From NCBI GenBank assembly GCA_964567265.1, contig CAZMLK010000001.1, positions 395,723 through 459,722 on the forward strand: a stretch of DNA of 64,000 nucleotides, written 5' to 3'. The position numbers and the translations under genes are program-made. Under the pieces are notes generated by a model. It was not told the origin of the DNA and searched no databases. It saw nothing but the letters and a program-made list of their open reading frames with translations. Positions 6,498 to 34,546 of the stretch are shown one piece after another (position 1 is the first letter of the stretch; each line of letters starts with the position of its first letter). This stretch comes from an uncultured Candidatus Saccharibacteria bacterium. GTDB taxonomy: Bacteria; Patescibacteriota; Minisyncoccia; Phycocordibacterales; UBA12088.

Positions 6498-8090
6498 TTA
6501 CGAAACGCGCGCCTCATCCTCCTTCTCTTTCAGGAAATTAAAAAATGCGTCGATGGTCCCGAGCACTTTCTTGAACGGCGTTTCCACCAGTGTATCAAGA
6601 ATCAGGACGAAAAGATTCAGGCGCGAGAACCTGAGAGAAAGCGCTCTGCCGATGCGGACCAGCGGAAGCACGAAAAGCGCCCGGAGCGCCCCTCCCCTCC
6701 CCTCTGTGCCGGAGAATACGTACCAGCGCGTGGCAATGACATTCAGTCGGAATCCGAAGTATGCGACCAGCGTGAGGAATGAGAGGAAGAGGAGGATGCC
6801 GACGATATCGAACTGAAGGAGCCTGAGCCCAGAGATAATGAGCCCGATACTGAAGAGGAAGAGCGCCAGGTACAACGCGCCGATGAAGAGAGGGGTGCTG
6901 CCTTCCGTCGATTTGAGTCGAAGCGGCACAGGCTCCTCATCAAAAAGCGCGGCCGCGACGCCGCGGACGATTTCCTTCGTATTCCGGGCGCCTGGCTGCT
7001 TGAACGTTTGCGTGATTCCAAGGAGCAGAAGGGGGTGGAAAAGCGCGTTCGTCGCGAGCGGCAGGTACTGCGGTTTCCCGTACACGAGCTGCTCGAACGG
7101 GAATTCGATGACGCCCGTCAGGATGATCTTCGTACAGAGGAGATAGACAACCGCGCGTGCGCCACCCTGTTTCGCGCGTGCGTATTCGAGGGCATAGTGC
7201 TGCTTCGCAAGCGTTTCGACCTCGGCCGCAAGCAGCGCCTGATCGCGGAACACGCGCTCGACATCGAGCCCATACCGCCTGAGGAGATCGATGATGATGG
7301 AATAAAAAATGCAGTCGTTGTGCAGCCGACCAGCGATACGCCCGTGGAGCGCGTCCGCAAGCATCGTATCAATGCTGTCGAGGAGGCGGATCAGCGCCTG
7401 CCCTTTCGGCACGTCGAGGTCTTCACTCCGTTCGAAGCCTGTCGCGAATTTCGTGAAGAGCGCATAGCGGAGCGCCATGGCGTCCTCACGCAGGAGCGAT
7501 TCCCGTACCCCGATATAGAGCTGGATATCGAATGGGATCTCCTTCCCGGCAGGCTCCTCGTCTATGAGCATGCTTCCCTGGCGTTCATGATAGAGCGATT
7601 CTGCGGCGGCCTCCCCTTCAGGAAACGGGGTGAAGAAGCGGTCGAGCTCGCAGGCTGCGAGATCAAGCATCGCGTCTTCTGCGCGTTTCCACACACGCGC
7701 GGCCTTTGGCGCGTAGAACAGGAGCGCGAGGTATTTCGAAAGGACGCTGGAGACGTAGCCTGCGGCGCTTTCGGGAACGGTGCGATTCGGGAGATAGCCG
7801 CCGCTGATGAGTTCGCGGACAAGATGCTTCCCCGCTTTTTGGAGATCCATATCCGCATCGAAATGGCGCTTGAGGATGCGGCGGAGCGCATGGCGGCGGA
7901 TCAGGTGATCATCCTTGTAATCGAGCGCGTAGCGCAGGCGCTCATACATGACGCCTGTGCGCTCCGTAACGGAATGGACCTCAATGGTCGCTTCCCTCCC
8001 CCATTCTTCGCTACCTCGAAGAGCCGCGACACTGGCAAGCTGTCGTTCGTATTCGAATAGGAGATAGGAAAAAGGTGCGGATCGCTCCAT
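6498..8090 (-). CDS. hypothetical protein, ~400-aa soluble N-terminal region plus 3 C-terminal TM helices
   Basis: Long ORF with a C-terminal hydrophobic block (LFIGALYLALFLFSIGLIISGL ... ILLFLSFLTLVAYFGF). No catalytic motif recognised. Confidence 0.5.
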   Translation of the reverse strand: MERSAPFSYLLFEYERQLASVAALRGSEEWGREATIEVHSVTERTGVMYERLRYALDYKDDHLIRRHALRRILKRHFDADMDLQKAGKHLVRELISGGYLPNRTVPESAAGYVSSVLSKYLALLFYAPKAARVWKRAEDAMLDLAACELDRFFTPFPEGEAAAESLYHERQGSMLIDEEPAGKEIPFDIQLYIGVRESLLREDAMALRYALFTKFATGFERSEDLDVPKGQALIRLLDSIDTMLADALHGRIAGRLHNDCIFYSIIIDLLRRYGLDVERVFRDQALLAAEVETLAKQHYALEYARAKQGGARAVVYLLCTKIILTGVIEFPFEQLVYGKPQYLPLATNALFHPLLLLGITQTFKQPGARNTKEIVRGVAAALFDEEPVPLRLKSTEGSTPLFIGALYLALFLFSIGLIISGLRLLQFDIVGILLFLSFLTLVAYFGFRLNVIATRWYVFSGTEGRGGALRALFVLPLVRIGRALSLRFSRLNLFVLILDTLVETPFKKVLGTIDAFFNFLKEKEDEARVS

Positions 8091-20022: not shown

Positions 20023-22734
20023 TTACGCTTCCGTAGCCTTTCTGCCAAAAAAAAGCAATTTTGTCGTCTCGATCGTCGCAAGGTTGAAAAACCCGATGCC
20101 AGCAAGGATGAGCACATCCGAATGCGAGAGCGGCACGAGATGGAGGAGGTGCGAAAGCGCGGGGATATTGAGGGCGCCGAGGAGCGCAGCGAAGCTCGCG
20201 GCGAGCGCCAGGAGAAGGAATCTATTCGAGAATATATTGATACGCCAGAGTGGCTGGCTGAGGCTCTTCATCGAGAACGCGAAGAAGATGGAATCGAGCG
20301 AGAGCGATATGAACATGATGGTCCGGATCTCCTCCTCCGGCATGCCTGTGAGCACGAGATAGATGTAGAGCGCGACCAGGAAGCTGCCGGAAATGAGGCT
20401 CGCGAGGATGATGAGCTTTTTCAAAGCAGGCGTCACGAGCGCGTTCTTAGAACGGGATCGCGGCTTGCGGCGCATGATTCCCTTCTCAGCCGGCTCGAAT
20501 GCGAATGCGAAATTCATAAGCCCTCCTTCGATGATATTGGTCCAGAGGAGCTGGGTCGGCAGGATCGGCAGCGGCGCCGCGAGCACCAAGGATCCCGTAA
20601 TGAGGAAGATGCTGCTGAAATTCGTCGCCAGCATGTAGGCAAAGATCTTGCGGAGGTTGTCGACGATACGGCGCCCTTCTTCGATCGCCGCGACCATGAT
20701 CGAGAAGCTGTTATCGAGGAGGATGAGATCGGATGCCTCTTTCGCGACTTCCGTACCGCTCCCGACCGCGACGCCGATGTCGGCGCTCCGGAGCGCAGGC
20801 GCGTCGTTGATGCCGTCTCCCGTCATCGCGACCACCTCGCCGGCATTCTTGAGGATGCGCACGATGCGGAGTTTCTGTTCTGGCGTCACGCGCGCGAACA
20901 CCTGCGCTTCACGGAGCGCGCGGAGGAGCGCCTCATCATCCATCTCCTCGAGCTTGGTGCCGGTGTACGATGAGAATTCCCCCTCCGCGACGCCCGCGTC
21001 GCGCGCGATCGCGCGAGCGGTCTCCTCGTTGTCGCCCGTGAGCATGATCACCGTCGCCCCCGCGCCCTTCACGGTCTTGATCGCTTCCGGCACGTCCTTG
21101 CGGATCGGATCGTGGAACGCCAGGAGGCCGACGAACGTGCTCCCATTGGTCAGCTTGTGATGCTCCTCGTCATCCTTTTCCGGAATCTTGTGCCAGGACA
21201 CTTCCTTGTACGCGACCGCGATGAAGCGCATGCCTTCGCGGCTGAGCGAGAGCTGTACCTGCTCGAATTGCCCGCGATCGTCACCCGTCATCGGGACCGC
21301 CTTTCCCTCGCGGTACACGTATTCAGCCCGCTCGAGGAATGCCTCCGGCGCACCGGTCATGATGAGCCGGCGCTCCTTTCCTTTCTGCTCATTGAGCGAC
21401 GCGCCGAACCGCCTCGAAGATTCGAAATGGAGGAAGTCTACTCGCTTCTGCTCGGCATGGAGGCCAGGCTGGGTGATTCCCTCCTTGAGGCCCGCATGCA
21501 ATATCGCTTTCTCGATGGGCCGGCCGTGGATGATGAATTTCGCTTCCCCTTCCTTCGCCTCGATGCCTGGATTCTCGAACTCCTCGATGAACGCGTCAGA
21601 TCCGAGGACTGCCATTCGGAGAAGATCCTTTGCATCTTCTTCCCACGCTTCGCCCGGGGCATGCGCGCGTGATTCGAGCGTGTAGACGGATGCCAGATCC
21701 ATGCGGGCTTCAGTCAGCGTGCCGGTCTTGTCAGTAAGGATCACCGTCGTCGCGCCGAGCGTCTCTGCCGCGAGCATGTTCCTCACTAATCCGCCGCGGC
21801 GGAGGATCGCTTCCATGCCGATCGCGAGCACTGCCGTGACTGCAGCAGGAAGGCCCTCGGGCACGACGGCAACAGCAATCGCGATCGCGATGAAGAGCAT
21901 CTCGATGAGCGGCTCGCCGCGCAGCAGCCCGAGGATGAAGATGACGGCGATGAGCACGACGACCAGGGATACGAGCATCGAAGCGATATGGTGGAGATTT
22001 TCCTGGAGCGGCGTCCGGCGCGTATCCGCGGACCCGAGCTCGCGCGCAATCGCGCCGACTTCCGTCTGCATGCCGACCGCGACCGCGACACCGAGGCCGG
22101 AACCGCCGACCACGAGCGTATTCGCGTATGCCATGTTGAGGCGTTCGGCGAGCGGCAGAGTATTCTCAAGCACTGCCGGATCCTTGGAGACCGGCAGCCA
22201 TTCGCCCGAGAGCGAAGCTTCGTTGACGGAGAGCGTGTGCACTTCAATCAACCGTACATCAGCGGGCACCGTATATCCGGCTTCCAAAACAACGATATCC
22301 CCGACGACCACTTCTTCAGAAGGAATGGTGACCTTCTCGCCATCGCGAATGACGATGGCGCGTTTGATCTCGGATGAACTGAGGAGCTGGAAGGCGCGGC
22401 TCGCCCGTCCCTCCTGGAAGAGCCCGATGCCGACATTGAGGATGAGCGCCGCGAAGATGACCGCACTGTCGGAAGTCTCATGGAGAAGGAGCGTCGCGAA
22501 GCCGGCAACCAGGAGCACTGCCGCGAGCGGATTCTCGAGCTGGCGGAGCACGCGATGGCCAGCGGTATCGGTATTCGTCGAGGTAAGGACGTTCCTCCCG
22601 AACGCTTCACGGAGCGTGGCGACCTGTGCATCGCTCTGGCCGGTCTCCGGGCTCACCTTGAAACGCGACAGCAGCGCGTCAACCGGCTCCGCGTGAGCAG
22701 GCGCTCCTTCCAGTGCATCTGTGCCTTTCGACAT
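20023..22734 (-). CDS. P-type (P2-like) cation-transporting ATPase
   Basis: DKTGTLT phosphorylation site, TGDN, GDGINDAPAL hinge, 8-10 TM helices; 903 aa. Confidence 0.9.
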   Translation of the reverse strand: MSKGTDALEGAPAHAEPVDALLSRFKVSPETGQSDAQVATLREAFGRNVLTSTNTDTAGHRVLRQLENPLAAVLLVAGFATLLLHETSDSAVIFAALILNVGIGLFQEGRASRAFQLLSSSEIKRAIVIRDGEKVTIPSEEVVVGDIVVLEAGYTVPADVRLIEVHTLSVNEASLSGEWLPVSKDPAVLENTLPLAERLNMAYANTLVVGGSGLGVAVAVGMQTEVGAIARELGSADTRRTPLQENLHHIASMLVSLVVVLIAVIFILGLLRGEPLIEMLFIAIAIAVAVVPEGLPAAVTAVLAIGMEAILRRGGLVRNMLAAETLGATTVILTDKTGTLTEARMDLASVYTLESRAHAPGEAWEEDAKDLLRMAVLGSDAFIEEFENPGIEAKEGEAKFIIHGRPIEKAILHAGLKEGITQPGLHAEQKRVDFLHFESSRRFGASLNEQKGKERRLIMTGAPEAFLERAEYVYREGKAVPMTGDDRGQFEQVQLSLSREGMRFIAVAYKEVSWHKIPEKDDEEHHKLTNGSTFVGLLAFHDPIRKDVPEAIKTVKGAGATVIMLTGDNEETARAIARDAGVAEGEFSSYTGTKLEEMDDEALLRALREAQVFARVTPEQKLRIVRILKNAGEVVAMTGDGINDAPALRSADIGVAVGSGTEVAKEASDLILLDNSFSIMVAAIEEGRRIVDNLRKIFAYMLATNFSSIFLITGSLVLAAPLPILPTQLLWTNIIEGGLMNFAFAFEPAEKGIMRRKPRSRSKNALVTPALKKLIILASLISGSFLVALYIYLVLTGMPEEEIRTIMFISLSLDSIFFAFSMKSLSQPLWRINIFSNRFLLLALAASFAALLGALNIPALSHLLHLVPLSHSDVLILAGIGFFNLATIETTKLLFFGRKATEA

Positions 22735-22800: not shown

Positions 22801-23250
22801 ATGATACAAACCCACATCCGCGAAGAGCTCTTGAAAGCCATGAAATCCAAGGAGGAACCGAAGCGGACGGTGCTTCGCGGCATCATCAGCGCCTTCACGA
22901 ACGAGCTCATCACCCTGAAGCGCTCTCCACAAGGAGAACTTACCGACCAGGAGGCCCTCGCCGTCATCCGCCGCGCCGTGAAGCAGCGCCGCGATTCGAT
23001 CGATCAGTTCCGGAAGGGTCATCGCGACGACCTCGCGCTTGCTGAGTCTGAGGAGCTCATGGTGCTCGAAGCATACGTGCCGCAGATGATGTCGAAAGAG
23101 GAGATCGTGCAGCATGCGCTCGCGAAGAAGGCGGAGCTCGGACTGACGGAGAAAGCGCAGGTCGGCCTCCTCATGGCGTCCTTGATGAAGGAACTCCACG
23201 GCAAGGCGGACGGCGCGGATGTAAAGGAAGTGGTTACTTCCCTATTCTAA
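22801..23250 (+). CDS. GatB/YqeY domain protein
   Basis: MIQTHIREELLKAMKSKEE...LRGIISAF...QRRDSIDQFRKG matches YqeY. Start at the internal ATG of the longer ORF-track ORF. Confidence 0.8.
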   Translation: MIQTHIREELLKAMKSKEEPKRTVLRGIISAFTNELITLKRSPQGELTDQEALAVIRRAVKQRRDSIDQFRKGHRDDLALAESEELMVLEAYVPQMMSKEEIVQHALAKKAELGLTEKAQVGLLMASLMKELHGKADGADVKEVVTSLF

Positions 23251-23324: not shown

Positions 23325-25730
23325 CTATGGAGTCGAAACTGCCCTGAGCATCGGCTCGATGCGGTCAGCAACCCGTGCATACCCGCTGGCATTCGGATGC
23401 ACCAAGTCGCTGCTCGTGAGGAACGGATTTCCCAGGACTCCTTTCAGGATATTCTCGACATACGCCGACTGCGTATCTCGTGCCACGTCCTTATACCGAT
23501 CATTGAGCGACGGGTTGAGGATGCCTCCGCCGAGACCGACCACGAGTACAACTGCTCCCTTCGCCTGGATGCGCTCCACAATGGTCTGCAGGTTCGAGAA
23601 TGTCTCAGCCCGTGAGACCGCGGGCACGCTGAGATTCGCGCCGATGCGGACAAGGATCAAGCGTATGCGTTCAGCAAAAGCCTTGTCGCCAATCGCGAGC
23701 GCTTCCTCATACATCCGGTGAAGCTCATCGTTCGCTCCGAGGAAGACAATGACGACTTTCGGATTCTTGGAAAGGACATCAGCGTCGAGGCGCGCGAGCG
23801 CCATCGAGGTATCGTTGCCGGACACGCCTGCATTCTGGATCGGCTTGCCGAGACGCTGCGAGAGCACGCTTACGTAGTCCTTTCCGGCAGGAGCACCGAC
23901 ACCGGAGGTCAGGCTGTCTCCGAGCGCGATAATATTCTGACCTTTTGATGGGTAGTTCTTGACCGGCCAGGGATTGCCTCCCGGATTCCCGCCGGTACCA
24001 CCCGTGGTTCCCCCGGTAGTACCGGTCGTTCCAGTAGTCCCTGTGGTGCCGGTCGTGCCTGTAGTTCCTGTAGTGCCCGTTGTCCCCGTGCTTCCGCCGC
24101 CGCCAACACGAATGCTGCCAGGACTCGCTCCAACTCGAGTGAACCCATCGTTGATGAATACGCGTGCCTCATAGATGCCATCAGCAAGTGAAGGAAAGGT
24201 CATCGATCCGGATGTTCCACCAGCTGGGATGTACTGCCATGCCGTGTACGAACGATCACCCTGCCCTGCTGCATAGATTCCCACCCAGTCTTTCGCATTG
24301 CGGCTCTGAGGTGCCTGCCAGTTCACGGTCACCGCGCCTCCAGACGGAACGGTTGCTGCTGCAAAGGCGACGGCATATCCGCCGGTACCGCCCGTCGTTC
24401 CTCCTGTGGTCCCTCCGGTCGTACCTGTGGTTCCCGTAGTACCGGTAGTTCCTGTCGTGCCTGTGGTTCCGGTAGTGCCCGTCGTTCCTGTGGTGCCAGT
24501 TGTCCCGCCCGTGGTGCCTCCCGTTCCTCCCATCGTAAATGCATTCGAGACCGCGACATGCGCACCCCCGCTGGTCACAAAATATCGTGCCTCATACACG
24601 CCCGGCTGGAAGCTTGTGAAATCAACGGCACCATCAGCAGATCCGATCGGAACATACTGCCACTTCCAATAGCCGCCATCGCTTCCAGAATTCGGCGTAT
24701 AGATGCCGATCCAGTCATGCGCTCCGACTGCAGGCGTGTGATAGGTCACATGCGCAACGCTGCCATTCACAGTAACTGAGAGCGAATATGAACCTCCGCC
24801 GCCGGTCGTTCCTCCTGTAGAGCCGCCCGTCGTACCTGTGGTTCCCGTAGTGCCCGTTGTCCCTGTCGTGCCAGTGGTCCCCGTCGTTCCAGTAGTACCA
24901 GTTGTGCCGGTTGTGCCCGTTCCGCCACCACCGCCAACACTGACAGAGCCAGGACTGGTCGCTGCACGCGTATATCCATTATTCAAATACAACCGCGCTT
25001 CATACTGGCCGTTCGCAAGTCCCGGAAAGCTGAGCGTTCCAGATGTCGCACCGCCGATGTACTGCCATGCCGTATACGAGCGATCTCCCTGGCCAGTCGC
25101 GTAAATGCCGACCCAATCTTGCGTACCGCGACTTGCGGGCGCCTGCCAGTTGACCACGACAGCACCTCCAGTCGGGACCGAAGCAGATGCGAACGAGACC
25201 GCATATCCTCCGGTACCGCCGGTGGTCCCGCCGGTAGTACCTCCCGTGGTCCCAGTTGTGCCGGTCGTTCCAGTCGTCCCCGTGGTACCGGTCGTGCCTG
25301 TTGTCCCAGATGTACCCGTCGTCCCAGTGGTTCCCGTAGTGCCTCCGGTTGTTCCCGTCCCTCCTCCGCCACCGTACGTGACCGAATTCGAGACTGCGAC
25401 ATGGCTATAGCCATTGGCGACAAGATACCGTGCTTCGTATGTGCCCGGATTGACGTTTAAGAAATCAATCGCTCCGTCTACCGCACCAGCCGGAACGTAC
25501 TGGTACAGGATGAATCCATGGTTGTCTGCTCCCACCGGAAAGAGTCCAATCCAATCCTGGTTGCCGGCCGTCGGCGCATGGTAGGTAACATGAATAATCC
25601 CGCCGGTGACAGTTGCATTCAACGTATAGCTTCCAACCTGCGCGTCAGCCCTTTCCACGGCTCCAAACCCAATGAGGGCGATCGCGGCTGAAAGAAGGAT
25701 TGTTGCCCTGATGGTGGTATGCATGGTCAT
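23325..25730 (-). CDS. secreted multi-domain protein: signal peptide, 4x ~90-aa repeat domain separated by (Thr-Gly)n linkers, C-terminal SGNH/GDSL hydrolase
   Basis: Signal peptide MTMHTTIRATILLSAAIALIG. Four repeats, each with W[IV]G[IL][FY]...[QK]Y...YEAR[YLV], alternating between two subtypes. TGTTGTTGTT linkers. C-terminal GDSLTSG, GANDE and DLVHPN motifs of the SGNH hydrolase family. Confidence 0.8.
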   Translation of the reverse strand: MTMHTTIRATILLSAAIALIGFGAVERADAQVGSYTLNATVTGGIIHVTYHAPTAGNQDWIGLFPVGADNHGFILYQYVPAGAVDGAIDFLNVNPGTYEARYLVANGYSHVAVSNSVTYGGGGGTGTTGGTTGTTGTTGTSGTTGTTGTTGTTGTTGTTGTTGGTTGGTTGGTGGYAVSFASASVPTGGAVVVNWQAPASRGTQDWVGIYATGQGDRSYTAWQYIGGATSGTLSFPGLANGQYEARLYLNNGYTRAATSPGSVSVGGGGGTGTTGTTGTTGTTGTTGTTGTTGTTGTTGTTGGSTGGTTGGGGSYSLSVTVNGSVAHVTYHTPAVGAHDWIGIYTPNSGSDGGYWKWQYVPIGSADGAVDFTSFQPGVYEARYFVTSGGAHVAVSNAFTMGGTGGTTGGTTGTTGTTGTTGTTGTTGTTGTTGTTGTTGGTTGGTTGGTGGYAVAFAAATVPSGGAVTVNWQAPQSRNAKDWVGIYAAGQGDRSYTAWQYIPAGGTSGSMTFPSLADGIYEARVFINDGFTRVGASPGSIRVGGGGSTGTTGTTGTTGTTGTTGTTGTTGTTGGTTGGTGGNPGGNPWPVKNYPSKGQNIIALGDSLTSGVGAPAGKDYVSVLSQRLGKPIQNAGVSGNDTSMALARLDADVLSKNPKVVIVFLGANDELHRMYEEALAIGDKAFAERIRLILVRIGANLSVPAVSRAETFSNLQTIVERIQAKGAVVLVVGLGGGILNPSLNDRYKDVARDTQSAYVENILKGVLGNPFLTSSDLVHPNASGYARVADRIEPMLRAVSTP

Positions 25731-25857
25731 GATAGTGATGACTCGTATGATAACGGATTCTTTCTAAAGGGATTATGAAGACAGAAGTGGGTTACCCCGG
25801 CCGAGCTGCCTGATTTTTGCTCGGGCACACAATACAACGTTTTTGAGGGATTGCATA

Positions 25858-25892
25858 GGAAAAGAGGCCGCGCGAAGCGCGGCCTCTTTTTG
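25858..25892 (-). terminator. terminator for beta-helix gene (agaggccgcgc-gaa-gcgcggcctct)
   Basis: GC hairpin with T-runs on both strands. Confidence 0.7.
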
Positions 25893-25911
25893 CTACATCG
25901 CACCAATCCAA

Positions 25912-28848
25912 TTATCGCATCACTCCCCGCGTCAGCGTCCCAAAATAGCCAGTACCCGCAGAGAGTCCTGCTGGTTCGAGGATATCTGCGACATGCGCGT
26001 TCTGAAAGAGGATGAGGGCTGCCTTAGTAGCAGGTCCGAAGAAATCAGTCTCGAATCCTGGCGACCCTGCTCCTACAGCGGACACTGTAAATCCATGTAC
26101 ATTCAAGTACATCTGAAGCTGACGGACATCTTCCCCGCGAGATCTGACTCTGAGATTGCGCGGGAAAGTCACTGACGTCATGGCAGGCGTCGTTGTTGAT
26201 ACCGAAAGATTTCCAAACACTTCATTGAGTTTCGCCAGCGTCAGCGGGCCGACGACACCATAGCCGGTCGTGCTCGGTGTGCCCGTGGTGACGATACCGT
26301 ACTTCGCTTGGAATCGTCGTACTGCGGCTTCCGTCAGCGCACCATAGAATCCGTTGACAATGGCTTCCGGGTACAGGGCAGCGTCTGAGGCAAAGAGTTG
26401 TTGCAAGGTGCGGACGTCTGGGCCCTGCATGCCGGGGAAGAGCGCGTTCGTGAAGATTGGACTCCTGCCTGTCGACGGCATCAACGGGGCAGGTTGTTGA
26501 TTGGAAGTACCAGGAATGGTCACCGCAGCTGAACAGACTGAGAAGGCGTTGCAGTATTTCACATAGAGCGTGCTTGTAGTATCAGGCCATGGGAGCGAAC
26601 TGGTTGCATTCACGTAGGTTGCAGTAGCGAACGAAGGGTCCGTGGAAATGGCAATCTTCGTGATATCCGTTCCGAATGAGAATGTGAGGATCCGTCCTGA
26701 CGGGATTGGCGTCGTTGACGTGGCAGCAAATCCTCCAGATGGACCCGTAGGGACTGGTGCACTTCCACCTCCTCCGCCCGAGGGTGGCAGGACGATATTC
26801 ACCGTTCGCGTTGACACCGCACTGTTCCCTGCCGTATCGGTTGCCGTGTAGGTAATGCGGTATGTTCCGACCGTGCCCACCGTCACTGTGTCCCCACCTG
26901 TGGTGACCGACACTGTTCCATCGACATCATCGGTCGCCGATGCGCCCGGGTCCGCAAAGCCCTGGCCGATGGTTTGAGTGATGGAGGCAGCTCCCGAAAG
27001 CGTAATGGTCGGCGCGACCGAGTCGGTATATTCGTACGCACCGATATCGCAGACACCCTGACGACTGACACCATTTTTGTCTGTCGTTGGGCACAGAGAA
27101 TCCGTGCCCGCATTGATGGCTGGGGAAGATGCGAGGAGGCGGTAATCACCCCCTGACACATCAGCCAATACGGGATCACTAGTCAAAGAATGCGACCCTA
27201 GAGAAAATCCCGACCCAGAGACTGACGCCGTTGCCGTATGTGCAATGAGGCTATAGTCTTCACTCACACTCGTCGCACCGGTTGTTTTCGAGATACCCGT
27301 CGCAAATCCATATATCAAATTGTTACGCAACGTAACGTTCCCTGTTGATTGGAGCGACATCGCTACGCCTGACTGCGACGGATTGATGAGGGTGTTGTTA
27401 TAGAACGAGAGCGCGGCCGCATCAAGCAACGTTACCAGTGCATTTGTTCCTGCGACTGTGGTGTATCCGAATACGTTTCCATACGCGATAATTGACGAGT
27501 TTTCAATATTTGTGACTGCACTTTTTTTATTGCCCCAAGCATACGAATTGGTAAGCCTGCCCCCTGACGTCTCGTGCCATGAGAATCCGTCACCATCGGA
27601 ACCAGATCCATCGACTCCATTGTTTGTAGATGTAGCATGATCGATGTTGATTGTGGGTCCATTATGAAATCCAAATCCATCATTCGTGTTGCTATCTGCG
27701 GTTGAATTTAAAATCGTTACGGTACCGCCAGTACCCGCGACAGCAACCCCGTTGGAACCAGTGACCGTGCCATTACTGTTGAATGTCGAACCGGACAATG
27801 TAAGGGTGTCACTTGATCCTCCCATGGTGACATTGATGCCAGCAAGACCGTTTGAACCCACGGTGAGATTTGAAAATCTTGACCCAGTTGACCCTGCCAG
27901 CATCAATATGCCGTCAGACGTATTGTTGGAGACCGTCGTCGTAGCAATGATTGCATTTGTTGGCTTCGAATCGAATCGGATTCCACGAGCAGTATTCCCA
28001 GTAACGGTCGAGTTTTTAATCGAAATTCCACTTGCGGTATTCAATATATATATTCCGTTCGAGCCGCAGCCCTGAATGGTAACTCCATCAATGACTGCTG
28101 TGGTGACATTATTCAAGATGAGGCAATCTCCTGAACCGCCTGTGATCGTAGAGGAGGTAATGGTGATATTTGAGCCAGCAGCCACAGAACTTCCAAACTT
28201 CATGCCGCTTGTTGAGGCGGTGATCGTGAGGTTTGAAAAAGTATCTCCTTGCGACTTGGTACCATTCAAGTTTATGCCGGTTGTAAAACCACTGACCGTA
28301 ATGTTGTCATATGTGCTCGCGGTACTGGTAGCATTGGTACTGATGACGATGGCCTGCGTTGTTGTGCCGCTAATTGAGAGATGGTTGAAATTAAGTCCGG
28401 TAAACGTACCTGAAAATACAAAGATGCCTGATTCGGACGGACTTCGTAAGACAAGATTTTGAATCGTCAGATACGATGCGCTGTTGCGAATATCGAATAT
28501 CCTATTCTGGCTTCCGGCATTCAGAATGGGATTGGCACCAGTGCCGTATGCATCAAAAACAATTGGATTTCCAGATGTACCCGAATCGTCAAACAGCGTT
28601 ATCTTTATATTTGAGAACGTTTCACCTTTCTTGAATAAAATCTGGTCTCCTGCCACGAAAGTGCGCGCGTTGATTGGTGTAGCCGACTGCCACGGCGTTC
28701 CACTGCTCGTACCATTATTCGAATCGCTGCCAAGAGTGGCGTCCACATAGTATGTCGCCGCGCTTGCCAGCGACGGCACTGCAGTCACAGCAAACAACGC
28801 TATTGCTGCAAATACAAACGCGATGTTTTTTGGGTAATTTTGAGGCAT
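25912..28848 (-). CDS. secreted right-handed parallel beta-helix repeat protein with Ig-like domain and two C-terminal peptidoglycan-binding (PG_binding_1-like) domains
   Basis: Signal peptide. Dozens of degenerate PbH1-like turns (NxxGxGI/NIT/GxS ladder). Ig-like TVSVTTGGDTVTVGTVGTYRITYTATDTAGNS. Two C-terminal repeats of the form G.DVR.LQ..L...G.....DG.FG..T..A...FQ. Confidence 0.8.
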   Translation of the reverse strand: MPQNYPKNIAFVFAAIALFAVTAVPSLASAATYYVDATLGSDSNNGTSSGTPWQSATPINARTFVAGDQILFKKGETFSNIKITLFDDSGTSGNPIVFDAYGTGANPILNAGSQNRIFDIRNSASYLTIQNLVLRSPSESGIFVFSGTFTGLNFNHLSISGTTTQAIVISTNATSTASTYDNITVSGFTTGINLNGTKSQGDTFSNLTITASTSGMKFGSSVAAGSNITITSSTITGGSGDCLILNNVTTAVIDGVTIQGCGSNGIYILNTASGISIKNSTVTGNTARGIRFDSKPTNAIIATTTVSNNTSDGILMLAGSTGSRFSNLTVGSNGLAGINVTMGGSSDTLTLSGSTFNSNGTVTGSNGVAVAGTGGTVTILNSTADSNTNDGFGFHNGPTINIDHATSTNNGVDGSGSDGDGFSWHETSGGRLTNSYAWGNKKSAVTNIENSSIIAYGNVFGYTTVAGTNALVTLLDAAALSFYNNTLINPSQSGVAMSLQSTGNVTLRNNLIYGFATGISKTTGATSVSEDYSLIAHTATASVSGSGFSLGSHSLTSDPVLADVSGGDYRLLASSPAINAGTDSLCPTTDKNGVSRQGVCDIGAYEYTDSVAPTITLSGAASITQTIGQGFADPGASATDDVDGTVSVTTGGDTVTVGTVGTYRITYTATDTAGNSAVSTRTVNIVLPPSGGGGGSAPVPTGPSGGFAATSTTPIPSGRILTFSFGTDITKIAISTDPSFATATYVNATSSLPWPDTTSTLYVKYCNAFSVCSAAVTIPGTSNQQPAPLMPSTGRSPIFTNALFPGMQGPDVRTLQQLFASDAALYPEAIVNGFYGALTEAAVRRFQAKYGIVTTGTPSTTGYGVVGPLTLAKLNEVFGNLSVSTTTPAMTSVTFPRNLRVRSRGEDVRQLQMYLNVHGFTVSAVGAGSPGFETDFFGPATKAALILFQNAHVADILEPAGLSAGTGYFGTLTRGVMR

Positions 28849-28963
28849 GTAACAAATTCAATGAGTAAGCGTTTTGTATTCTCGAAGACGGATTTGAAAC
28901 GTAGTCATTGCCACTGATTCACTATACCAGCTGCATTACGACAGAGGTATTCCGAATGGGGAT

Positions 28964-29012
28964 TACGGCGGAAAAAACGGAAAAAGGCGGCCGCGCTTCG
29001 CGCGGCCGCCTT
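28964..29012 (-). terminator. terminator for 29023..30603 gene
   Basis: aggcggccgcg-cttc-gcgcggccgcct hairpin followed on the minus strand by TTTTTCCGTTTTTTCC. Confidence 0.8.
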
Positions 29013-29022
29013 TCGCCTCCAC

Positions 29023-30603
29023 CTACATCGTTATCTGCACCGCATTCCCCGCCTGATCGTATCCATTCGCCTTGAAGTAACGGATCTCGTAGCTGCCGGG
29101 AGTGACATTCTGGAATGTGTAGGTGCCCGATGGGCCGGTCGCATACGACCATGCAAGATACGAGCGGTTGCCTGCCCCGGTCGCATAGAGCCCGATCCAG
29201 TCGGTCGTCGTGAACGCAGTACTTGGGCCCACCCAGCTCGCGATGATTGTATTTCCAGATCTCGATGCGGAGAGTGAATATCCGGCTGCGGCAGAAAGAT
29301 CAGCTCGTGCGACTGCCGCCTTCGCCTGTACGGTGATTTCCGGAGTAACTGCAACTGATGTGTATTTATTATTCTTCAGATACCGGATCTCGAAGGTGCC
29401 GGTGCGGTCGAGCGTGAATGTCATGTCGCCGCTCGCAGCATCCCCGGTGTATTTCCAGGTCCCGTAGCTCCGGTTCGACGCGCCCTTCTCATAGATCGCG
29501 ATCCAGTCCTGCGTATTCGACGAGCCTCCTGGCGTCTGCCAGTGCACGGTCACGGTATCACTAACTCGCGGGGTCTGAGAGGAAATCGTGAGCGAGTATC
29601 CGGCTGCCGCTGCAGCGGAGCCCAGTGTATAGGTCGCTGAGGTCGCACGCCGGGTGTAGCCGTTGTTCTCGAAGGTACGCGCCTCATATGCGCCGGGCTC
29701 GAGCGAGTCTGTATTGAAACTGAGCGTTCCCGAATTGCCGGATGGAAGATACTGCCACAGAAGATAGGAGGAATCAGCAGCGCCGACCGGATAGAGCCCG
29801 ACCCAATCCCGCGAACTGCGGCCGGTCGGCGCCTCGAACCGCACCGAGAGCGTATTCCCGGAAATGCCATTGATGGCGAGTGCGTAGTTCCCTACGGGTG
29901 CAGCCGCAGCGCTTCCGGTCGTACCGGTGGTTCCGTCTTCTGTTCCCGTCCCGCCACCACCAGTCACGATCTCGCGCCACGGACCGCTGGGCACATTGCC
30001 CGCGTCCACGAACCGCCAAGACACCAGCATCTGGTCGCCGCCGTTCAAGCAGTCGCGCATGGCGGGAGAGAGATCGATGCCGATTGATTGGCGCGGTCCC
30101 GCGCTTCCGAATACGTACGCAATATCATCCTCACCGTATGGTCCGACATCTTCCCACTGGCCGTAGCAGGTCGCACCGTTCGAGGTGACCGCCACCCAAT
30201 GATTCTTGAGCTGCGAAACGCTCTTGCTCGCGCCGGATTGATACCACGGGATCTGGCTCGCGTTCGATTTCTGGGATCCGTTATTGCCGATGTCGTTATA
30301 CGGAAGCGCGATATAGAACGGATTCTCCTTCGGAGTGAACGCGCACGGGCGGTAGCCGCATCGATTGTCGGGATCGTCTTCCCCGCCGTAATGAGTTGCC
30401 CAGAGCTCGTCCCATGCGCTCGGGACGTTCGAGATGAAGCCGTTGTCTGAGGTCGCGCCTTCGCCTACCCAGAAGACAGTCGCGTTGACCGTTTTCGGGT
30501 TCGTTTCGGTCGCGGTGATGGCTGCTGCCGGGTATGGATAGGCTGCTCCGAGTAGAAGGAGGAATACGGCTAGCGATGCGGCTCTAATGCCCTTCCGATT
30601 CAT
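29023..30603 (-). CDS. secreted protein: N-terminal double-psi beta-barrel-like (RlpA/expansin-type) domain + 3 copies of the same ~90-aa repeat domain found in 23325..25730
   Basis: Signal peptide. N-domain with YGGEDD...C...C.F......LPY...HWVAVT.NGATCYGQWEDVGP pattern. Three repeats with WVGLY/WIAIY/WIGLY ... YEAR/FEIRY. Confidence 0.7.
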   Translation of the reverse strand: MNRKGIRAASLAVFLLLLGAAYPYPAAAITATETNPKTVNATVFWVGEGATSDNGFISNVPSAWDELWATHYGGEDDPDNRCGYRPCAFTPKENPFYIALPYNDIGNNGSQKSNASQIPWYQSGASKSVSQLKNHWVAVTSNGATCYGQWEDVGPYGEDDIAYVFGSAGPRQSIGIDLSPAMRDCLNGGDQMLVSWRFVDAGNVPSGPWREIVTGGGGTGTEDGTTGTTGSAAAAPVGNYALAINGISGNTLSVRFEAPTGRSSRDWVGLYPVGAADSSYLLWQYLPSGNSGTLSFNTDSLEPGAYEARTFENNGYTRRATSATYTLGSAAAAAGYSLTISSQTPRVSDTVTVHWQTPGGSSNTQDWIAIYEKGASNRSYGTWKYTGDAASGDMTFTLDRTGTFEIRYLKNNKYTSVAVTPEITVQAKAAVARADLSAAAGYSLSASRSGNTIIASWVGPSTAFTTTDWIGLYATGAGNRSYLAWSYATGPSGTYTFQNVTPGSYEIRYFKANGYDQAGNAVQITM

Positions 30604-30674: not shown

Positions 30675-31538
30675 TCACTGATTTCCAGCTTCAAGCTGTG
30701 GATCGAGATCGTCCATGATGTACCGCATGAATTGTTTTCCCAGTTCAGTGAGAACCTGTTGATCATCGTTGAATGGAGACTTGAGCGTCTTAGCTTGGGG
30801 ACCGGCTTTCTTTTTTGCGACTCTTCGTCGCCACTGCCCATCCGCATCCGATTCTCGAGGTTGGCGCATAACGTCAGCCATTTGGAGTTCGTGGAAAAGG
30901 AACTTGAACAAATCGGCCTTCGCCGAGTCATCCCTTGGTATCTCACCGAATATCTCCGTTGCGATATCGTAAGAAGATATACCCGGATTCTGGTACACCA
31001 GCCTGAGTATCTGGAAATGAAGCTCGTGGAATCGCTCCATAAATTCCACAAAGAGGCGGACCACATCGTCATCCACAACGCGCATGCCAGCGGCGTTAGT
31101 GATGAGTTTTCGCAAACTCTCCCTTTTCTCGGTGGTATCGGCGCCGTCCCAGACGCGGAAAGTCTTACGCACAAGATTCAGATATTCTGTCGACTCTATT
31201 CGCTCTTCCGTCTGAATTCCAAATATCTCCAAACGCTCAAAGACACGACGCATATCCGCTAGTAACTCGCGAAGCTTCAACTCGTGCTCTTGTACCCACA
31301 AGAAAAGGAGCTTGTTCGTTATGCCTTGCTCCTTCTCGGCTGATAGAGTGGCAGCAGCACTTAAGACGCTTCCAACCCACGGAATACCACTCAACGCCGC
31401 CATTGCAACGCGTCCGTATTTCTTCCAATTTCCACCCGTTAGTTGCTCAAGAATAGCCCGCTCTTTTTCATTCAATACAACTGCTTCGATGCGTTCCGGG
31501 AGTTTGTGGTCTGCCATGGGAATCAGTCTACTCCTCAT
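30675..31538 (-). CDS. hypothetical protein (visibly lower GC than surroundings)
   Basis: 287-aa ORF, AT-richer codon usage than neighbours, lies between the surface locus and tRNA-Glu. No motif recognised. Start may be the second Met (MADHKL). Confidence 0.5.
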   Translation of the reverse strand: MRSRLIPMADHKLPERIEAVVLNEKERAILEQLTGGNWKKYGRVAMAALSGIPWVGSVLSAAATLSAEKEQGITNKLLFLWVQEHELKLRELLADMRRVFERLEIFGIQTEERIESTEYLNLVRKTFRVWDGADTTEKRESLRKLITNAAGMRVVDDDVVRLFVEFMERFHELHFQILRLVYQNPGISSYDIATEIFGEIPRDDSAKADLFKFLFHELQMADVMRQPRESDADGQWRRRVAKKKAGPQAKTLKSPFNDDQQVLTELGKQFMRYIMDDLDPQLEAGNQ

Positions 31539-31758
31539 ATATTTATCAGCAAATTTCTCGTAACATGTAACGAAATATGATTTTGTGCCCCCGTCTAGCT
31601 TCAGTGTGGTCGTCGGTCCTTACAGGACCAGTATCCCGATTGGATTTTTTAGTGCGGCCATAAATGGCCGACAAAAAATGCTCAATCGGGCTTCGACTCC
31701 CGGACGAAGTCTCCCCCGGAGACTTCTTAGGGTCCCAACTTTCGCTACGCTCAATTTG

Positions 31759-31830
31759 TGACCCTACCGGGAGTCGAACCCGGCTTTAGAGCTTGAGAAG
31801 CTCTCGTCCTAACCGATAGACGATAGGGCC
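31759..31830 (-). tRNA. tRNA-Glu (anticodon CUC), CCA not encoded
   Basis: Reverse complement GGCCCTATCGTCTATCGGTTAGGACGAGAGCTTCTCAAGCTCTAAAGCCGGGTTCGACTCCCGGTAGGGTCA. 7-bp acceptor (one G-U), D-arm with GG, anticodon stem AGAGC/GCTCT with loop TTCTCAA, T-arm CCGGG-TTCGACT-CCCGG. Confidence 0.85.
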
Positions 31831-31861
31831 AATGTACACCGAAAGTACCACAGTTTCCCGA

Positions 31862-31898
31862 TTTTAAAAAGGTGAGGCCGCCCAAGACATGGGCGGCC
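31862..31898 (-). terminator. terminator for 31903..32205 gene
   Basis: ggccgccc-aagacat-gggcggcc hairpin followed on the minus strand by TTTTTAAAAT. Confidence 0.65.
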
Positions 31899-31902
31899 CA
31901 CT

Positions 31903-32205
31903 TCATTGCTTTGCTGGTTCGACAAGCTCAAGCGCGTCTGGGTGATACGTCTTATCTCGGCCTGACAAATGTACCTGTCCGCGCGCGTCTACCGACTTTA
32001 CCTGGTACTCCTCCCATCCGCGCGCATCTACCAGGCGGACGATATCTCCCTTCTTGAACGTAACCACGACCTTGTTGGCTTTTTGGCCGTCAGCACGCGT
32101 CCGCTGGCGTTTTCTTGTGTCGCGCAAAATGTCAGAGATCGTCTCATTAATGATTCTCTGATGTACCGCTCCTGGCCGCCGCCTGTCTCCGCTGGCGATG
32201 TCCAT
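31903..32205 (-). CDS. hypothetical small basic protein
   Basis: Start trimmed to MDIASG, because the longer ORF would run through the upstream gene's terminator hairpin. KOW/SH3-like VVVTFKKGDIVRLVD segment. Confidence 0.4.
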   Translation of the reverse strand: MDIASGDRRRPGAVHQRIINETISDILRDTRKRQRTRADGQKANKVVVTFKKGDIVRLVDARGWEEYQVKSVDARGQVHLSGRDKTYHPDALELVEPAKQ

Positions 32206-32257
32206 CGAACCTCCATTCGTTGATGCTTTCGATATTAAGATGCATATATTGAGATGT

Positions 32258-32300
32258 GTCAAATATAAGACCCCCGCGCGCACCTCGGTGCGGCGGGGGT
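32258..32300 (-). terminator. terminator for 32309..32635 gene
   Basis: Imperfect GC hairpin cccccgcgcgcacc/ggtgcggcggggg followed on the minus strand by TCTTATATTT. Confidence 0.5.
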
Positions 32301-32308
32301 CGGACGGC

Positions 32309-32635
32309 CTAGGCCATCTGCGGCCAGACGAGACCTCTCATGAGCGAGCTGAGATCAGGCGTCGGGACTAGTTGGGAGATGCTGTGGAGCAGGCGGCGTA
32401 CTTTCCGCCCGCCCCGGACAGCGTCAGTCTGGATCGGCGTGACGTGGGCCATTAGGAGGCCAGTCCCCGTAAGAAACACTCGGCAAATGCGCACTATGAT
32501 GCGTCGTTTGCCGTCGATCAGATATGCCGTAAGCGCGGCGCCGCTTTTCAGTTGCTCCTTGAAAAATCGAAGGAGCGGATTTGTTGCCCGAGCCCGGGTA
32601 CGGCGGCCGCTATTCGTGCAAATCTTCAACGTCAT
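32309..32635 (-). CDS. hypothetical protein
   Basis: 108-aa basic ORF with a terminator after its stop. Confidence 0.4.
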   Translation of the reverse strand: MTLKICTNSGRRTRARATNPLLRFFKEQLKSGAALTAYLIDGKRRIIVRICRVFLTGTGLLMAHVTPIQTDAVRGGRKVRRLLHSISQLVPTPDLSSLMRGLVWPQMA

Positions 32636-32774
32636 CTACAAACCTCCGCTGGTTTCAGAGAACAAATGCCCTCCCTGGGCACCTGAAGATAGTACCGAAA
32701 AATTGACTTTTTGAAAAGGTGGGTTGAAAAATACCCGGGCGTGAGCCCGGGCATTGGTCGGATGAAAATTCTCT

Positions 32775-33185
32775 TCAGGCAGGCACGACGCCCGCGATTT
32801 CGAGGAAGCGCTCACGAAGCCACGCAGGCGGTCGTGGTGTTTCCTCGCTTCCATCTGCTGCAATGATCACGTGCTGGCAGTTTGTGTCCGACATACCGAG
32901 CACATGTTCCCCAAGCGAACGCGCATACGCATCCATATATTGTCTCACGTGTCTTGCAGCGTCGCGTCGCCTCCGCGTACTGAGCGAGAGCGCCTTCCGC
33001 CAGAGATGCGAGGGCTTGAACCAGTCGCGTGTTTCAACATACAGGCAGACAACCGAGATCGGGCAAATGCCGTCTCGGTAAGACGGAGGCACGAATCGTA
33101 GGTGCGTACCATGTATGAGAACGGGGGTATAGCTTCCGTTGCAGATTGCTGTTTTAAGCGTTGAAAGGAATGTTTCGATATCCAC
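32775..33185 (-). CDS. hypothetical protein (GTG start)
   Basis: 136-aa ORF; GGGGAG Shine-Dalgarno motif upstream of the GTG start; promoter-like element upstream. Confidence 0.4.
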   Translation of the reverse strand: MDIETFLSTLKTAICNGSYTPVLIHGTHLRFVPPSYRDGICPISVVCLYVETRDWFKPSHLWRKALSLSTRRRRDAARHVRQYMDAYARSLGEHVLGMSDTNCQHVIIAADGSEETPRPPAWLRERFLEIAGVVPA

Positions 33186-33253: not shown

Positions 33254-34546
33254 CTACCTCCGGAGCCACTCTGCGTCCTGGCGGGCGAGAAGCTCTTCCT
33301 TGATCTGCGGATTCGCCATGAACTGCTCGATACAGCGCTCCATGCGGATGGACTGCGAGCCTTTGACGAAAATGACATCCCCTTCCTCCATCATGGACTC
33401 GATCATCTGTCCTGCCTCTTCCGCATCCCTGCATTCGAAAATAGTCTTCTTCTTCATGCCGGCTGCGTGCGCGCTCTTGGCTGAGAAATGCGCCCGCACA
33501 CCGACGGTGAGGAGTATATCCGCGACTTCCGCGAGCTGCTTCCCCGCGATCTTATGCGCTTCGATCGAGTACGAGCCGAGCTCGAGCATGTCGCCGAAGG
33601 CGACGATAGTGCGCCGGTGCGTGGTGAGGCTCTTCAGCGTGGCGACCGCTTCTTCGACCGCAACCGGTGAGGCATTGTAGGAATCATCAACGATCATCGT
33701 CCCCTTCTCTCCCTTCAAAATGCGCATACGGCCCGGCGACGGGATATGGTTCTGGAACGCGTCGCGGAGTTCAGAAAGCGTGACGCCTTCGAGCGTTCCC
33801 ATCGCGGTCGCGGCAAGAAGCGGGTATGCATGCTGGGCGCCAAGAACGCCCGGCAGCGTGAAGTTCGCCGTTTCTCCCCCCGCGTTCACGATGAGCGTGA
33901 TGCCGGAGGTGAGGACATCATTGGTGAGCACGTTCTGGAGCCCGCGACCTTGTATTTCGGAGCCTTCGTGGAATCCATAGGTCACCATCCTTCCTTTCCA
34001 TCCTGCTGCACGCTTCAGGATGTTGTGATCGTCCTTGTTGATGATGAGCGTGCCGTTCTCGGTGAGCGCATGCACGATCTTGAAATCCTCGTCGTTGACG
34101 GCGTCTGGCGAATCGAAATATTCCACATGAACCGGCAGGTCAGGAAAGCGCGTGAGGATGACGGCATCCACAGAGAGCCACTTTGCGAGTGCTTCGATAT
34201 CGCCCGGATGATCCGAACCGACTTCGAGCACCAGCCATTCCGGATACTGCTCCTTCACGAAAATAAGCACGAGCCCCGCGACAATGTTCTTCGTCCACAG
34301 GAACGGATTGTTCCATGCATTCGGCCGCCCGAGGATGGTGAGCGGCACGCCGATCTCGCTGTTGAAGCTCTTCTGGCTTTTCCGCACGAAGTATTTCTCG
34401 GAAAGCGCGACATACACGGCGTCCTTGGTGGACGTCTTTCCGACACTGCCAGAAACCGCGACGATGCGCGGTTTGTATTTCTTAAGGATCAGCCTGGCTT
34501 CGAAGGTCAGTATTGCAACCAGGATGCTGCGAAGAATGTGTTTCAT
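33254..34546 (-). CDS. murF: UDP-N-acetylmuramoyl-tripeptide--D-alanyl-D-alanine ligase
   Basis: Mur ligase P-loop SGSVGKTSTKD, central and C-terminal Mur ligase domains (DDSYNASP); position in the cell-division cluster downstream of ftsI. Confidence 0.75.
   Translation of the reverse strand: MKHILRSILVAILTFEARLILKKYKPRIVAVSGSVGKTSTKDAVYVALSEKYFVRKSQKSFNSEIGVPLTILGRPNAWNNPFLWTKNIVAGLVLIFVKEQYPEWLVLEVGSDHPGDIEALAKWLSVDAVILTRFPDLPVHVEYFDSPDAVNDEDFKIVHALTENGTLIINKDDHNILKRAAGWKGRMVTYGFHEGSEIQGRGLQNVLTNDVLTSGITLIVNAGGETANFTLPGVLGAQHAYPLLAATAMGTLEGVTLSELRDAFQNHIPSPGRMRILKGEKGTMIVDDSYNASPVAVEEAVATLKSLTTHRRTIVAFGDMLELGSYSIEAHKIAGKQLAEVADILLTVGVRAHFSAKSAHAAGMKKKTIFECRDAEEAGQMIESMMEEGDVIFVKGSQSIRMERCIEQFMANPQIKEELLARQDAEWLRR

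Follow-up and report, generated by a model that had tools for sequence, protein, structure and literature searches.

A modular non-coding unit with inverted and direct copies of the adjoining tRNA tail lies 3' of tRNA genes in Patescibacteria

The gene for tRNA-Glu(CUC) in the window analyzed here (the whole 64,000-nucleotide stretch of a Candidatus Saccharibacteria contig) is followed by a fragment of its own T-arm in inverted orientation, raising the question of what kind of event or element such a fragment represents. The initial annotation had offered two answers, namely a decayed attachment site for a surface-protein island at 23-31.5 kb or a tRNA-like structured element in its own right. 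We find that the fragment is part of a modular non-coding unit, about 130-210 bp long, that lies directly 3' of tRNA genes in Paceibacteria-class Patescibacteria.

According to both ARAGORN and Rfam, tRNA-Glu(CUC) is the sole tRNA of the 64-kb window. Its 3' end on the minus strand reads ...CCGGG-TTCGACT-CCCGG-TAGGGTC-A, and this 3' part (arm A in Table 1) is the sequence copied by the element. The plus strand at 31688-31703 does read GGGCTTCGACTCCCGG, as first reported, and the inverted fragment is present, but it extends about twice as far as was originally described, the second piece (arm B part 1) having been missed. The C that had seemed to be inserted in the T-arm copy is an alignment artefact; the homology stops at the T-loop, and GCCCG is part of the next stem. 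By repeat search, arm B part 1 is a reverse complement at 12 of 14 positions (86% complementary to 31753-31766) and pairs an A with T71 of the tRNA, the family pattern being GACYCTA, while part 2 (T') matches the reverse complement of the tRNA's TTCGACT+CCCGG at 12 of 12 positions. When the tRNA 3' end was reverse-complemented and aligned locally to the 300 nt downstream, the score was z = 6.4, which none of 200 shuffles reached. Neither ARAGORN nor the Rfam tRNA model yields a cloverleaf for the inverted fragment on either strand, and a relaxed Rfam search at E <= 10 shows nothing in 31450-31950 beyond tRNA-Glu(CUC).

Table 1. Features of the tRNA-Glu(CUC) locus, in window positions.
Feature	Positions	Strand	Description or basis
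tRNA-Glu(CUC)	31758/9-31830	minus	ARAGORN; Rfam RF00005, 56.9 bits
Arm A, tRNA-Glu 3' part	T-loop 31772-31778; T-stem 3' strand 31767-31771	minus	
Arm A, continued	acceptor 3' strand 31760-31766; discriminator 31759	minus	
Trailer and apex of the A|B palindrome, AAATTGAGCGTAGCGA	31742-31757	minus	
Arm B part 1, AAGTTGGGACCCTA	31728-31741	minus	inverted copy of acceptor 3' strand, discriminator and trailer
Linker AG, hairpin H1 (GAAGTCTCC GGG GGAGACTTC), linker GT	31704-31727	minus	
Arm B part 2 (T'), CCGGGAGTCGAA	31692-31703	minus	exact inverted T-loop and T-stem 3' strand
Module M-a, stem a, CCCGATTG...CAATCGGG	31635-31690	minus	repeat search; covariation
Linker ATACTG (conserved) and stem b	31615-31634	minus	alignment; covariation
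Arm C, decayed, CTAGACGGGGGCACAAAAT	31580-31598	minus	degenerate direct copy of tRNA 3' end; repeat search
Whole unit	31585-31736	minus	covariance model R1, 91.9 bits, E = 2.9e-23

The trailer after the tRNA reads CAAATTGAGCGTAGCGA on the minus strand, and the loop motif GAGCGNAGCGA inside the trailer and apex recurs in other copies according to motif scans. Most relatives have a terminator-like hairpin at the trailer position; the window has none. The hairpins that had been noticed in the spacer are indeed there, and stem b can be added to them. H1 is a perfect 9-bp hairpin by repeat search (gaagtctcc/ggagacttc, 31706-31726) and splits arm B precisely at the acceptor/T-stem junction. The tttttt...aaaaaa hairpin lies at the center of stem a, itself an imperfect hairpin with 27-nt arms, and is tipped by GGCCA-TTTA-TGGCC. 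Stem b is GGTCC-TGTAA-GGACC at 31615-31629, with a loop consensus of YGTAR. Arm C of the closest relative, L008, is CTAGGCGGGGTCACAGAT, and intact copies read GATTCCCSG-TAGGGTC-AC. The spacer folds more strongly than its shuffles on both strands (z = -3.9 for the minus strand and z = -2.9 for the plus strand), and covariance model R1 (see below) finds a single unit in the 64-kb window. A strong 10-pair terminator-like hairpin with a T-run at 31875-31899 (minus strand) closes the upstream ORF before the tRNA. No terminator-like site was found in the window between the tRNA, the unit, and the 280-aa gene that follows, so the unit is probably transcribed here.

Flanking proteins assign the window to the class Paceibacteria of the Patescibacteria. 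The order of a Mur-ligase gene (33254-34546 in the window) followed by tRNA-Glu is kept in most of 80 related genome loci, which allowed the junction to be compared. Among 43 syntenic tRNA-Glu loci of related Paceibacteria, 14 carry B, T' or C features within 300 nt 3' of the tRNA. In relatives, a direct copy of the T-stem 3' strand and acceptor 3' strand lies 129-206 nt downstream of the tRNA, and the copies track their own genome's tRNA sequence (TAGAGTC, TGGGGTC, TGGGACC, etc.). L008, whose Mur ligase is 68% identical to that of the window, has a collinear locus and a matching unit with C likewise decayed, which indicates that the window unit was inherited and is old.

Searches of larger collections place these loci in a family. 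The exact 47-nt tRNA 3' half had no match in the genome collection. When the B/H1/T' motif, in reverse complement, was used to scan metagenome contigs, there were 82 matches on 80 contigs, with fewer than one expected by chance. A same-strand tRNA-Glu (CUC or UUC) lies 13-63 nt upstream of 50 of the 82, another 10 are 104-7935 nt from a tRNA-Glu, and the others mostly lie at contig ends or after a degenerate tRNA-tail repeat. Covariance model R1 gave 114 matches in the fetched loci; 67 lie no more than 130 nt 3' of a tRNA, and 10 come straight after another unit. H1 and M modules were also found 3' of tRNA-Ser(CGA), Val(GAC/TAC), Phe(GAA), and Leu(CAA), all of them bystander tRNAs in the fetched contigs; arms B and C of these units match their own tRNA's T-loop, T-stem, and acceptor strand, with H1 again at the acceptor/T junction. 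Roughly one third of these unselected bystander tRNAs have a unit. The element has no family in Rfam 15 at the gathering threshold, where the window and 11 relatives yield only tRNA and relaxed searches give sub-threshold noise. No copy was found in phage, plasmid, and viral collections (motif scans of viral contigs; BLAST against phages and plasmids), and a literature search found no description of such an element. A group I intron in a tRNA gene was considered and does not apply to this element; introns of that kind sit at anticodon-loop position 35/36 (PMC13011429).

Read along the tRNA strand, a unit consists of A; the trailer, usually with a terminator-like hairpin; the inverted trailer and acceptor 3' strand; AG-H1-GT; the inverted T-stem 3' strand and T-loop; a hairpin module; C; and the native trailer. 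The direct repeat C spans from mid T-loop to 1-4 nt beyond the discriminator. There are three interchangeable modules, one of which follows GAA in each unit: M-a, the window type, with stem a, a GTACTG linker, and stem b with its YGTAR loop; M-b, with ...GGTGCCCAGAC, a hairpin, and then AGTCGAGGGAGAT; and M-c, with ...GGGGTCGCGAG, a hairpin, and then ACTTGTGACCGAT. The inverted orientation, which had been seen as an oddity of the window, is a defining feature of an element family. In 42 of 50 distinct copies, arm B exactly reverse-complements the tRNA 19-mer, and three variable positions covary in all combinations. It pairs an A with U71, whereas the tRNA's own 5' strand has G2; because of this A opposite U71, arm B, which copies the trailer as well, is derived from the tRNA's 3' strand and not from its 5' strand. 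Arm C has decayed in about half of the copies, those of the window and L008 among them, while arm B remains exact.

Two features of the loops and modules are recorded here in their own right. The hairpin loops of many units, including 31742-31752 in the window, often read GAGCGNAGCGA, containing GCGNAGC. GCGNAGC is a sequence type that forms very stable DNA mini-hairpins, and these loops may hint at single-stranded DNA structure. A window-wide search for the GAGCGNAGCGA loop as a genome-wide repeat gave 2 matches only, one of them in the unit. In M-b units (e.g., L108, L125, L129, and L015) there is a conserved CCCAGAC...GTCGAGGG, a predicted helix with tandem G.A pairs and a bulge that could be kink-turn-like.

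To assess the fold, 23 M-a units, including those of the window and L008 and one tRNA-Ser unit, were aligned, and covariance model R1 was built from this alignment. RNAalifold predicts five helices across the 23 units: P1 (B with the acceptor part of C), H1, P3 (T' with C), stem a, and stem b. In the resulting 34 pairs, 95.1% of cells are paired, compared to 73.5% in shuffles, none of 500 shuffles reaches that value, and slid controls give 34-48%. Changes on both sides are seen in 25 of the 34 pairs among the 23 units. Compensatory changes affect 7 of 8 pairs of H1 across these copies, and all 7 pairs of stem a and all 5 pairs of stem b covary. P1 is 97% paired and P3 is 95% paired, even with the tRNA-Ser copy contributing wholly different arms, and the hairpins are preserved through compensatory changes between the window and L008. 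The unpaired AG, GU, GAA, and GUA are invariant across the aligned units. On the tRNA strand, G.U outnumber A.C (91 versus 56, p = 0.005), a count taken from an alignment that is model-biased. In a single strand, B is thus predicted to pair with C (or with A), rebuilding the tRNA acceptor/T-stem helix with H1 at the junction. This conserved, covarying fold bears out the second of the two original suggestions, that of a structured tRNA-like element.

The units also behave as discrete insertions at the DNA level. With flanks 99.6% identical, L102 has one 180-nt unit more than L141, ending in the direct repeat ATTCCCGGTAGAGTCAC, and with flanks 100% identical, L168 has a tandem 134-nt unit after tRNA-Val that L143 does not have. 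A tRNA-Ser unit is present in L106 and absent from L137. In L074, about 300 nt made up of two sub-units precede the trailer that in L075 directly follows an identical tRNA, and the native trailer resumes past the second direct copy, C2. The unit therefore varies between near-identical strains in being present or absent, can be tandem, and is found at no fewer than five tRNA species. The direct repeat starts in the T-loop, and the flanking repeat comprises 12-25 nt of tRNA sequence. An encoded CCA is present in 1 of 68 tRNAs with a unit downstream and in 17 of 57 naive genes, a scarcity that fits a tRNA tail and trailer supplied by the element. The suspicion of an integration-type structure was therefore well placed, with a tRNA-derived fragment, direct repeat C, and precise occupied/empty polymorphisms in relatives.

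The same tRNA site is occupied by larger mobile DNA in two relatives. At tRNA-Glu(UUC) of L125, a 7.9-kb island (0-7.9 kb 3' of the tRNA) opens with a large serine recombinase having Resolvase, Recombinase, and Zn_ribbon_recom domains, with a second resolvase-domain ORF alongside, and the island separates the tRNA from an older tail remnant (AAGGTCACCA) and a unit. At tRNA-Glu(UUC) of L131, an 829-nt single-gene cassette with a transglutaminase-like ORF is the difference from L094, the contigs being otherwise 100% identical; the cassette ends in the degenerate tail repeat GGTTCTATCTCGAGAGGGCTCAC, which is also found ahead of units in L122 and L120. ORF clustering around the 82 units found only housekeeping or variable genes and no recombinase recurring beside them. 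Near the window unit there is no recombinase gene; L125 is alone in having a serine recombinase island at this tRNA. No transposase gene was found near units in the 82 neighborhoods, nor was a RAYT transposase or a parent insertion sequence. The originally reported lack of an integrase gene near tRNA-Glu was likewise reproduced.

Small GIY-YIG nuclease ORFs of about 80-110 aa lie beside tRNAs or units in four loci (L020 at ~7560-7830, L100 after a tRNA-Ser unit, L123 at ~920, and L112), and that of L020 is flanked by tRNA-Glu on one side and, 420 nt downstream, by a direct copy of the tRNA tail on the other. These may be hitch-hiking homing-type genes, and their link to the units is inconsistent. 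In L073, a partial duplicate of the tRNA 5' end (ATGGCCCTATCGTCTAAC...) lies about 100 nt upstream of an intact tRNA-Glu and is a different kind of tRNA-fragment scar.

The reading that we prefer, with confidence about evenly balanced between belief and doubt, is that the units are non-autonomous integrative mini-elements targeting tRNA 3' ends. A small circle made up of one tRNA 3' part, the inverted complement of that part, and the modules would recombine with the tRNA gene by Campbell-type integration, crossing over at a point from the T-loop to the tRNA 3' end. The tRNA would then receive its tail, trailer, and terminator from the element, and its former tail would be displaced and become C; such a crossover would give the order A, hairpin, B, M, C that is observed. 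Arm B would let a single-stranded form fold into a double-stranded replica of the target, much like integron attC sites or the CTX-phage attP, and a putative recombinase would act in trans. The inverted arm would have an obvious use only with a single-stranded substrate. With C degenerate in both the window and L008 and the two loci collinear, the window copy looks like an old relic in which the A:B complementarity and the hairpins persist.

Several observations count against mini-elements. No free or circular form was seen, and no recombinase linked to the units was found. A classical integrase would leave unexplained how one module set comes with arms for five tRNAs, and slippage or unequal crossing-over between direct repeats could yield the polymorphisms without active transposition. 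The tRNA-like strand topology, the position of H1 at the acceptor/T junction, and the invariant unpaired nucleotides are features more usual in structured RNAs, and the excess of G.U over A.C and the probable transcription of the window unit point the same way.

Comparison with known systems situates the units among, and apart from, several classes. Like tRNA-end genomic islands, CIMEs, and tycheposon-type arrays, they lie directly 3' of tRNAs with a tRNA 3' direct repeat from the T-loop, supply a replacement tRNA tail, form tandem accretions, and have cargo islands at the same site (L125 and L131). Of the features expected of an attachment scar, the distal direct repeat and the empty/occupied polymorphism were found, and an adjacent recombinase gene was not. 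In contrast to such islands, the unit is gene-less and only 130-210 bp long, has an exact inverted copy of the attachment sequence that is split by a hairpin, has an interior conserved as a single-strand fold and not as protein-binding duplex arms, and uses one module set for at least five tRNA species.

Integron attC and CTX-phage attP(+) are folded single-stranded recombination sites, the CTX attP(+) hairpin being used by XerCD. Like them, the unit has an imperfect palindrome whose arms would pair into a duplex recombination site, lacks an internal recombinase gene, and conserves structure above sequence, with extrahelical features. The product predicted for such sites (target-left, arm, loop, inverse arm, remainder, arm-left, target-right) corresponds to A, hairpin, B, M, C. 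The unit differs from them in targeting the tRNA 3' end and not attI or dif, and in having long arms (17-30 nt) that are exact target copies; its single-stranded intermediate is putative. As for attC in particular, the imperfect palindrome with an R''-L''...L'-R' single-strand fold is present (B:C plus internal stems, with covariation), whereas the RYYYAAC/GTTRRRY cores are absent, the arms being tRNA-derived, and no intI-like gene was found.

MITEs and REPINs resemble the unit in size, lack of coding capacity, inverted terminal arms (B against C), several intergenic copies per genome, and hairpin folds. However, the arms of the unit are copied from the neighboring tRNA and vary with it, where a fixed family sequence would be expected, its flanking repeat, here taken as 17 nt or longer, is the tRNA tail and varies in length, it occurs strictly at tRNA 3' ends, and no transposase accompanies it. 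Plant mitochondrial t-elements, mascRNA, the tRNA-like domain of tmRNA, and YrlA share with the unit an acceptor and T-stem mimic and a discriminator-like 3' end, and the predicted fold places this mimic in tRNA strand order, as in a t-element. Unlike these RNAs, the unit has an insert instead of a T-loop, its stems are sequence-identical to the adjacent tRNA, and its Rfam scores are negligible (14.3 bits for YrlA versus a 69-bit cut-off). YrlA and mascRNA were rejected as identities; their weak scores reflect the tRNA itself. A retro-copy origin, which predicts a CCA after arm C, was also rejected, this CCA having been found in only 4 of 43 copies.

The most serious rival, though one that we consider unlikely, is that the unit is primarily an RNA, a putative trailer RNA of tRNA shape (B-H1-T'-M-C) that would arise by co-transcription with the tRNA or by read-through from it. 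Its acceptor/T-stem mimic might be bound by RNase P, RNase Z, or the CCA-adding enzyme or might work as a processing signal or a decoy, in the manner of plant mitochondrial t-elements or mascRNA. Gain and loss of a gene would then account for the DNA polymorphism, and mobility would be compatible with this reading. Read 5' to 3', the unit follows tRNA topology: the acceptor 5' strand comes first, an arm stands where residues 8-48 would be, the two T-stem strands flank an insert, and the acceptor 3' strand and discriminator close the series. This topology, the strong covariation, invariant linker nucleotides, sense-strand G.U count, better fold on the minus than the plus strand, hairpin-preserving changes between the window and L008, and lack of a terminator between tRNA and unit in the window all suit an RNA. 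Yet in most copies a terminator-like hairpin with a U-run stands between the tRNA and B. Arm B complements the 3' strand exactly, non-tRNA trailer included, and does not keep the tRNA's G2.U71, and a mimic needs neither. Such a mimic would also be without a T-loop and an Rfam family match, and it would require C, the very arm that is so often decayed, in the window and L008 too, where B has stayed exact. A very improbable alternative is a neutral by-product without function or mobility of its own, in which a quasi-palindrome would grow into the tRNA 3' end as replication switched templates at the trailer hairpin. A|B is indeed one long palindrome centered on the trailer loop, intrastrand template switching would keep A and B complementary automatically, and B tracks the difference at T-loop position 59 (C in the window, T in L008). 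Left unexplained, however, are H1, the M modules, and the invariant linkers common to unrelated tRNAs and genomes, as well as direct repeat C, the precise whole-unit indels, the 82 motif matches against fewer than one expected, and the covariation of the internal stems; this family-wide conservation largely refutes the by-product.

Least credible of all is the original suggestion that the inverted fragment is a decayed att site marking one end of a 23-31.5 kb surface-protein island at tRNA-Glu. Compared to L008, the window does have additional genes past the unit, namely the 280-aa accessory gene and those for the surface proteins of 526 and 978 aa, the 280-aa gene is found in variable contexts in many phyla, and tRNA-Glu is an integration hotspot in relatives. 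The far boundary, on the other hand, has no direct or inverted tRNA-derived repeat. The direct repeat sought near 23.3 kb does not exist, the only matching one being degenerate arm C about 165 nt downstream of the tRNA, beyond which the window holds no further direct copy of the tRNA 3' part. The only other 13-mer match (inverted, with 2 mismatches, at ~23009-23021) is inside an ORF, with about 0.7 expected by chance. There is no integrase gene, and the 150-nt unit, which occurs island-free in most relatives, accounts for the inverted copy. Comparing the junction in relatives, as had been advised, confirmed that the unit is conserved in L008 and others and told against the island, the GDSL surface protein and its flanking genes being collinear with L008. 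The 23-31.5 kb region is a variable hotspot, and the inverted fragment is not its attachment site.

Returning to integrative mini-elements, a more speculative extension, which we offer tentatively and rate as improbable, is that the units represent a new, target-matched element class or else tRNA-tail mimic RNAs acting on tRNA 3'-end metabolism in the reduced genomes of Patescibacteria. In the target-matched variant, a structured ssDNA or RNA would carry a copy and the complement of the last 17-30 nt of the tRNA gene, and the match itself, not a sequence-specific integrase, would direct insertion at the tRNA 3' end. Arms templated anew on each target would account for a single module set serving Glu, Ser, Val, Phe, and Leu tRNAs.

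The genomes of Patescibacteria are very small, and few mobile elements have been recognized in them. Since about one third of the sampled tRNA genes carry a unit, it is probably among the commonest repeats of these bacteria and has been missed by annotation. The units mark and shape integration hotspots that gather accessory genes, including the variable surface-protein region of the window. A self-complementary replica of a tRNA tail would imply either structure- or homology-guided insertion without a linked enzyme or a new kind of tRNA mimic. The covariance model can be used to annotate the units, which would prevent their being misread as tRNA pseudogenes or prophage scars.

The genes around the window unit merit separate mention. 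The surface proteins at 23325-30603 are a beta-helix/PG-binding protein of 978 aa, a SKICH-like protein of 526 aa, and an 801-aa protein with a GDSL lipase domain; the L008 counterpart of this set is a single 729-aa GDSL protein. A P-type cation ATPase at 20023-22734 is also extra relative to L008. The 280-aa protein (30678-31517, minus strand) belongs to no Pfam family and has 926 homologues at 45-80% identity, spread over Patescibacteria, Acidobacteria, Caulobacteraceae, and others, in variable neighborhoods that include resolvase, HigB, and Peptidase_M78/HTH genes. Its gene is missing from the corresponding L008 position and, judging from these homologues, looks like a horizontally mobile accessory or defense-type gene. 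It was rejected as a synteny anchor, as its homologues occur in unrelated contexts without tRNAs, making it an accessory gene and not part of the element. On the other side of the tRNA, three small ORFs (~105-136 aa, no Pfam family) occupy 31903-33185 on the minus strand and separate the tRNA from the Mur-ligase gene, which it follows within about 100 nt in L008 and most relatives. The ORF beside the tRNA (31903-32220) matches the Colicin E5 tRNA-anticodon nuclease domain weakly and below threshold (E = 0.0026, 18.5 bits versus a 25-bit cut-off), and a toxin/immunity-type insertion may have taken place here, 5' of the tRNA.
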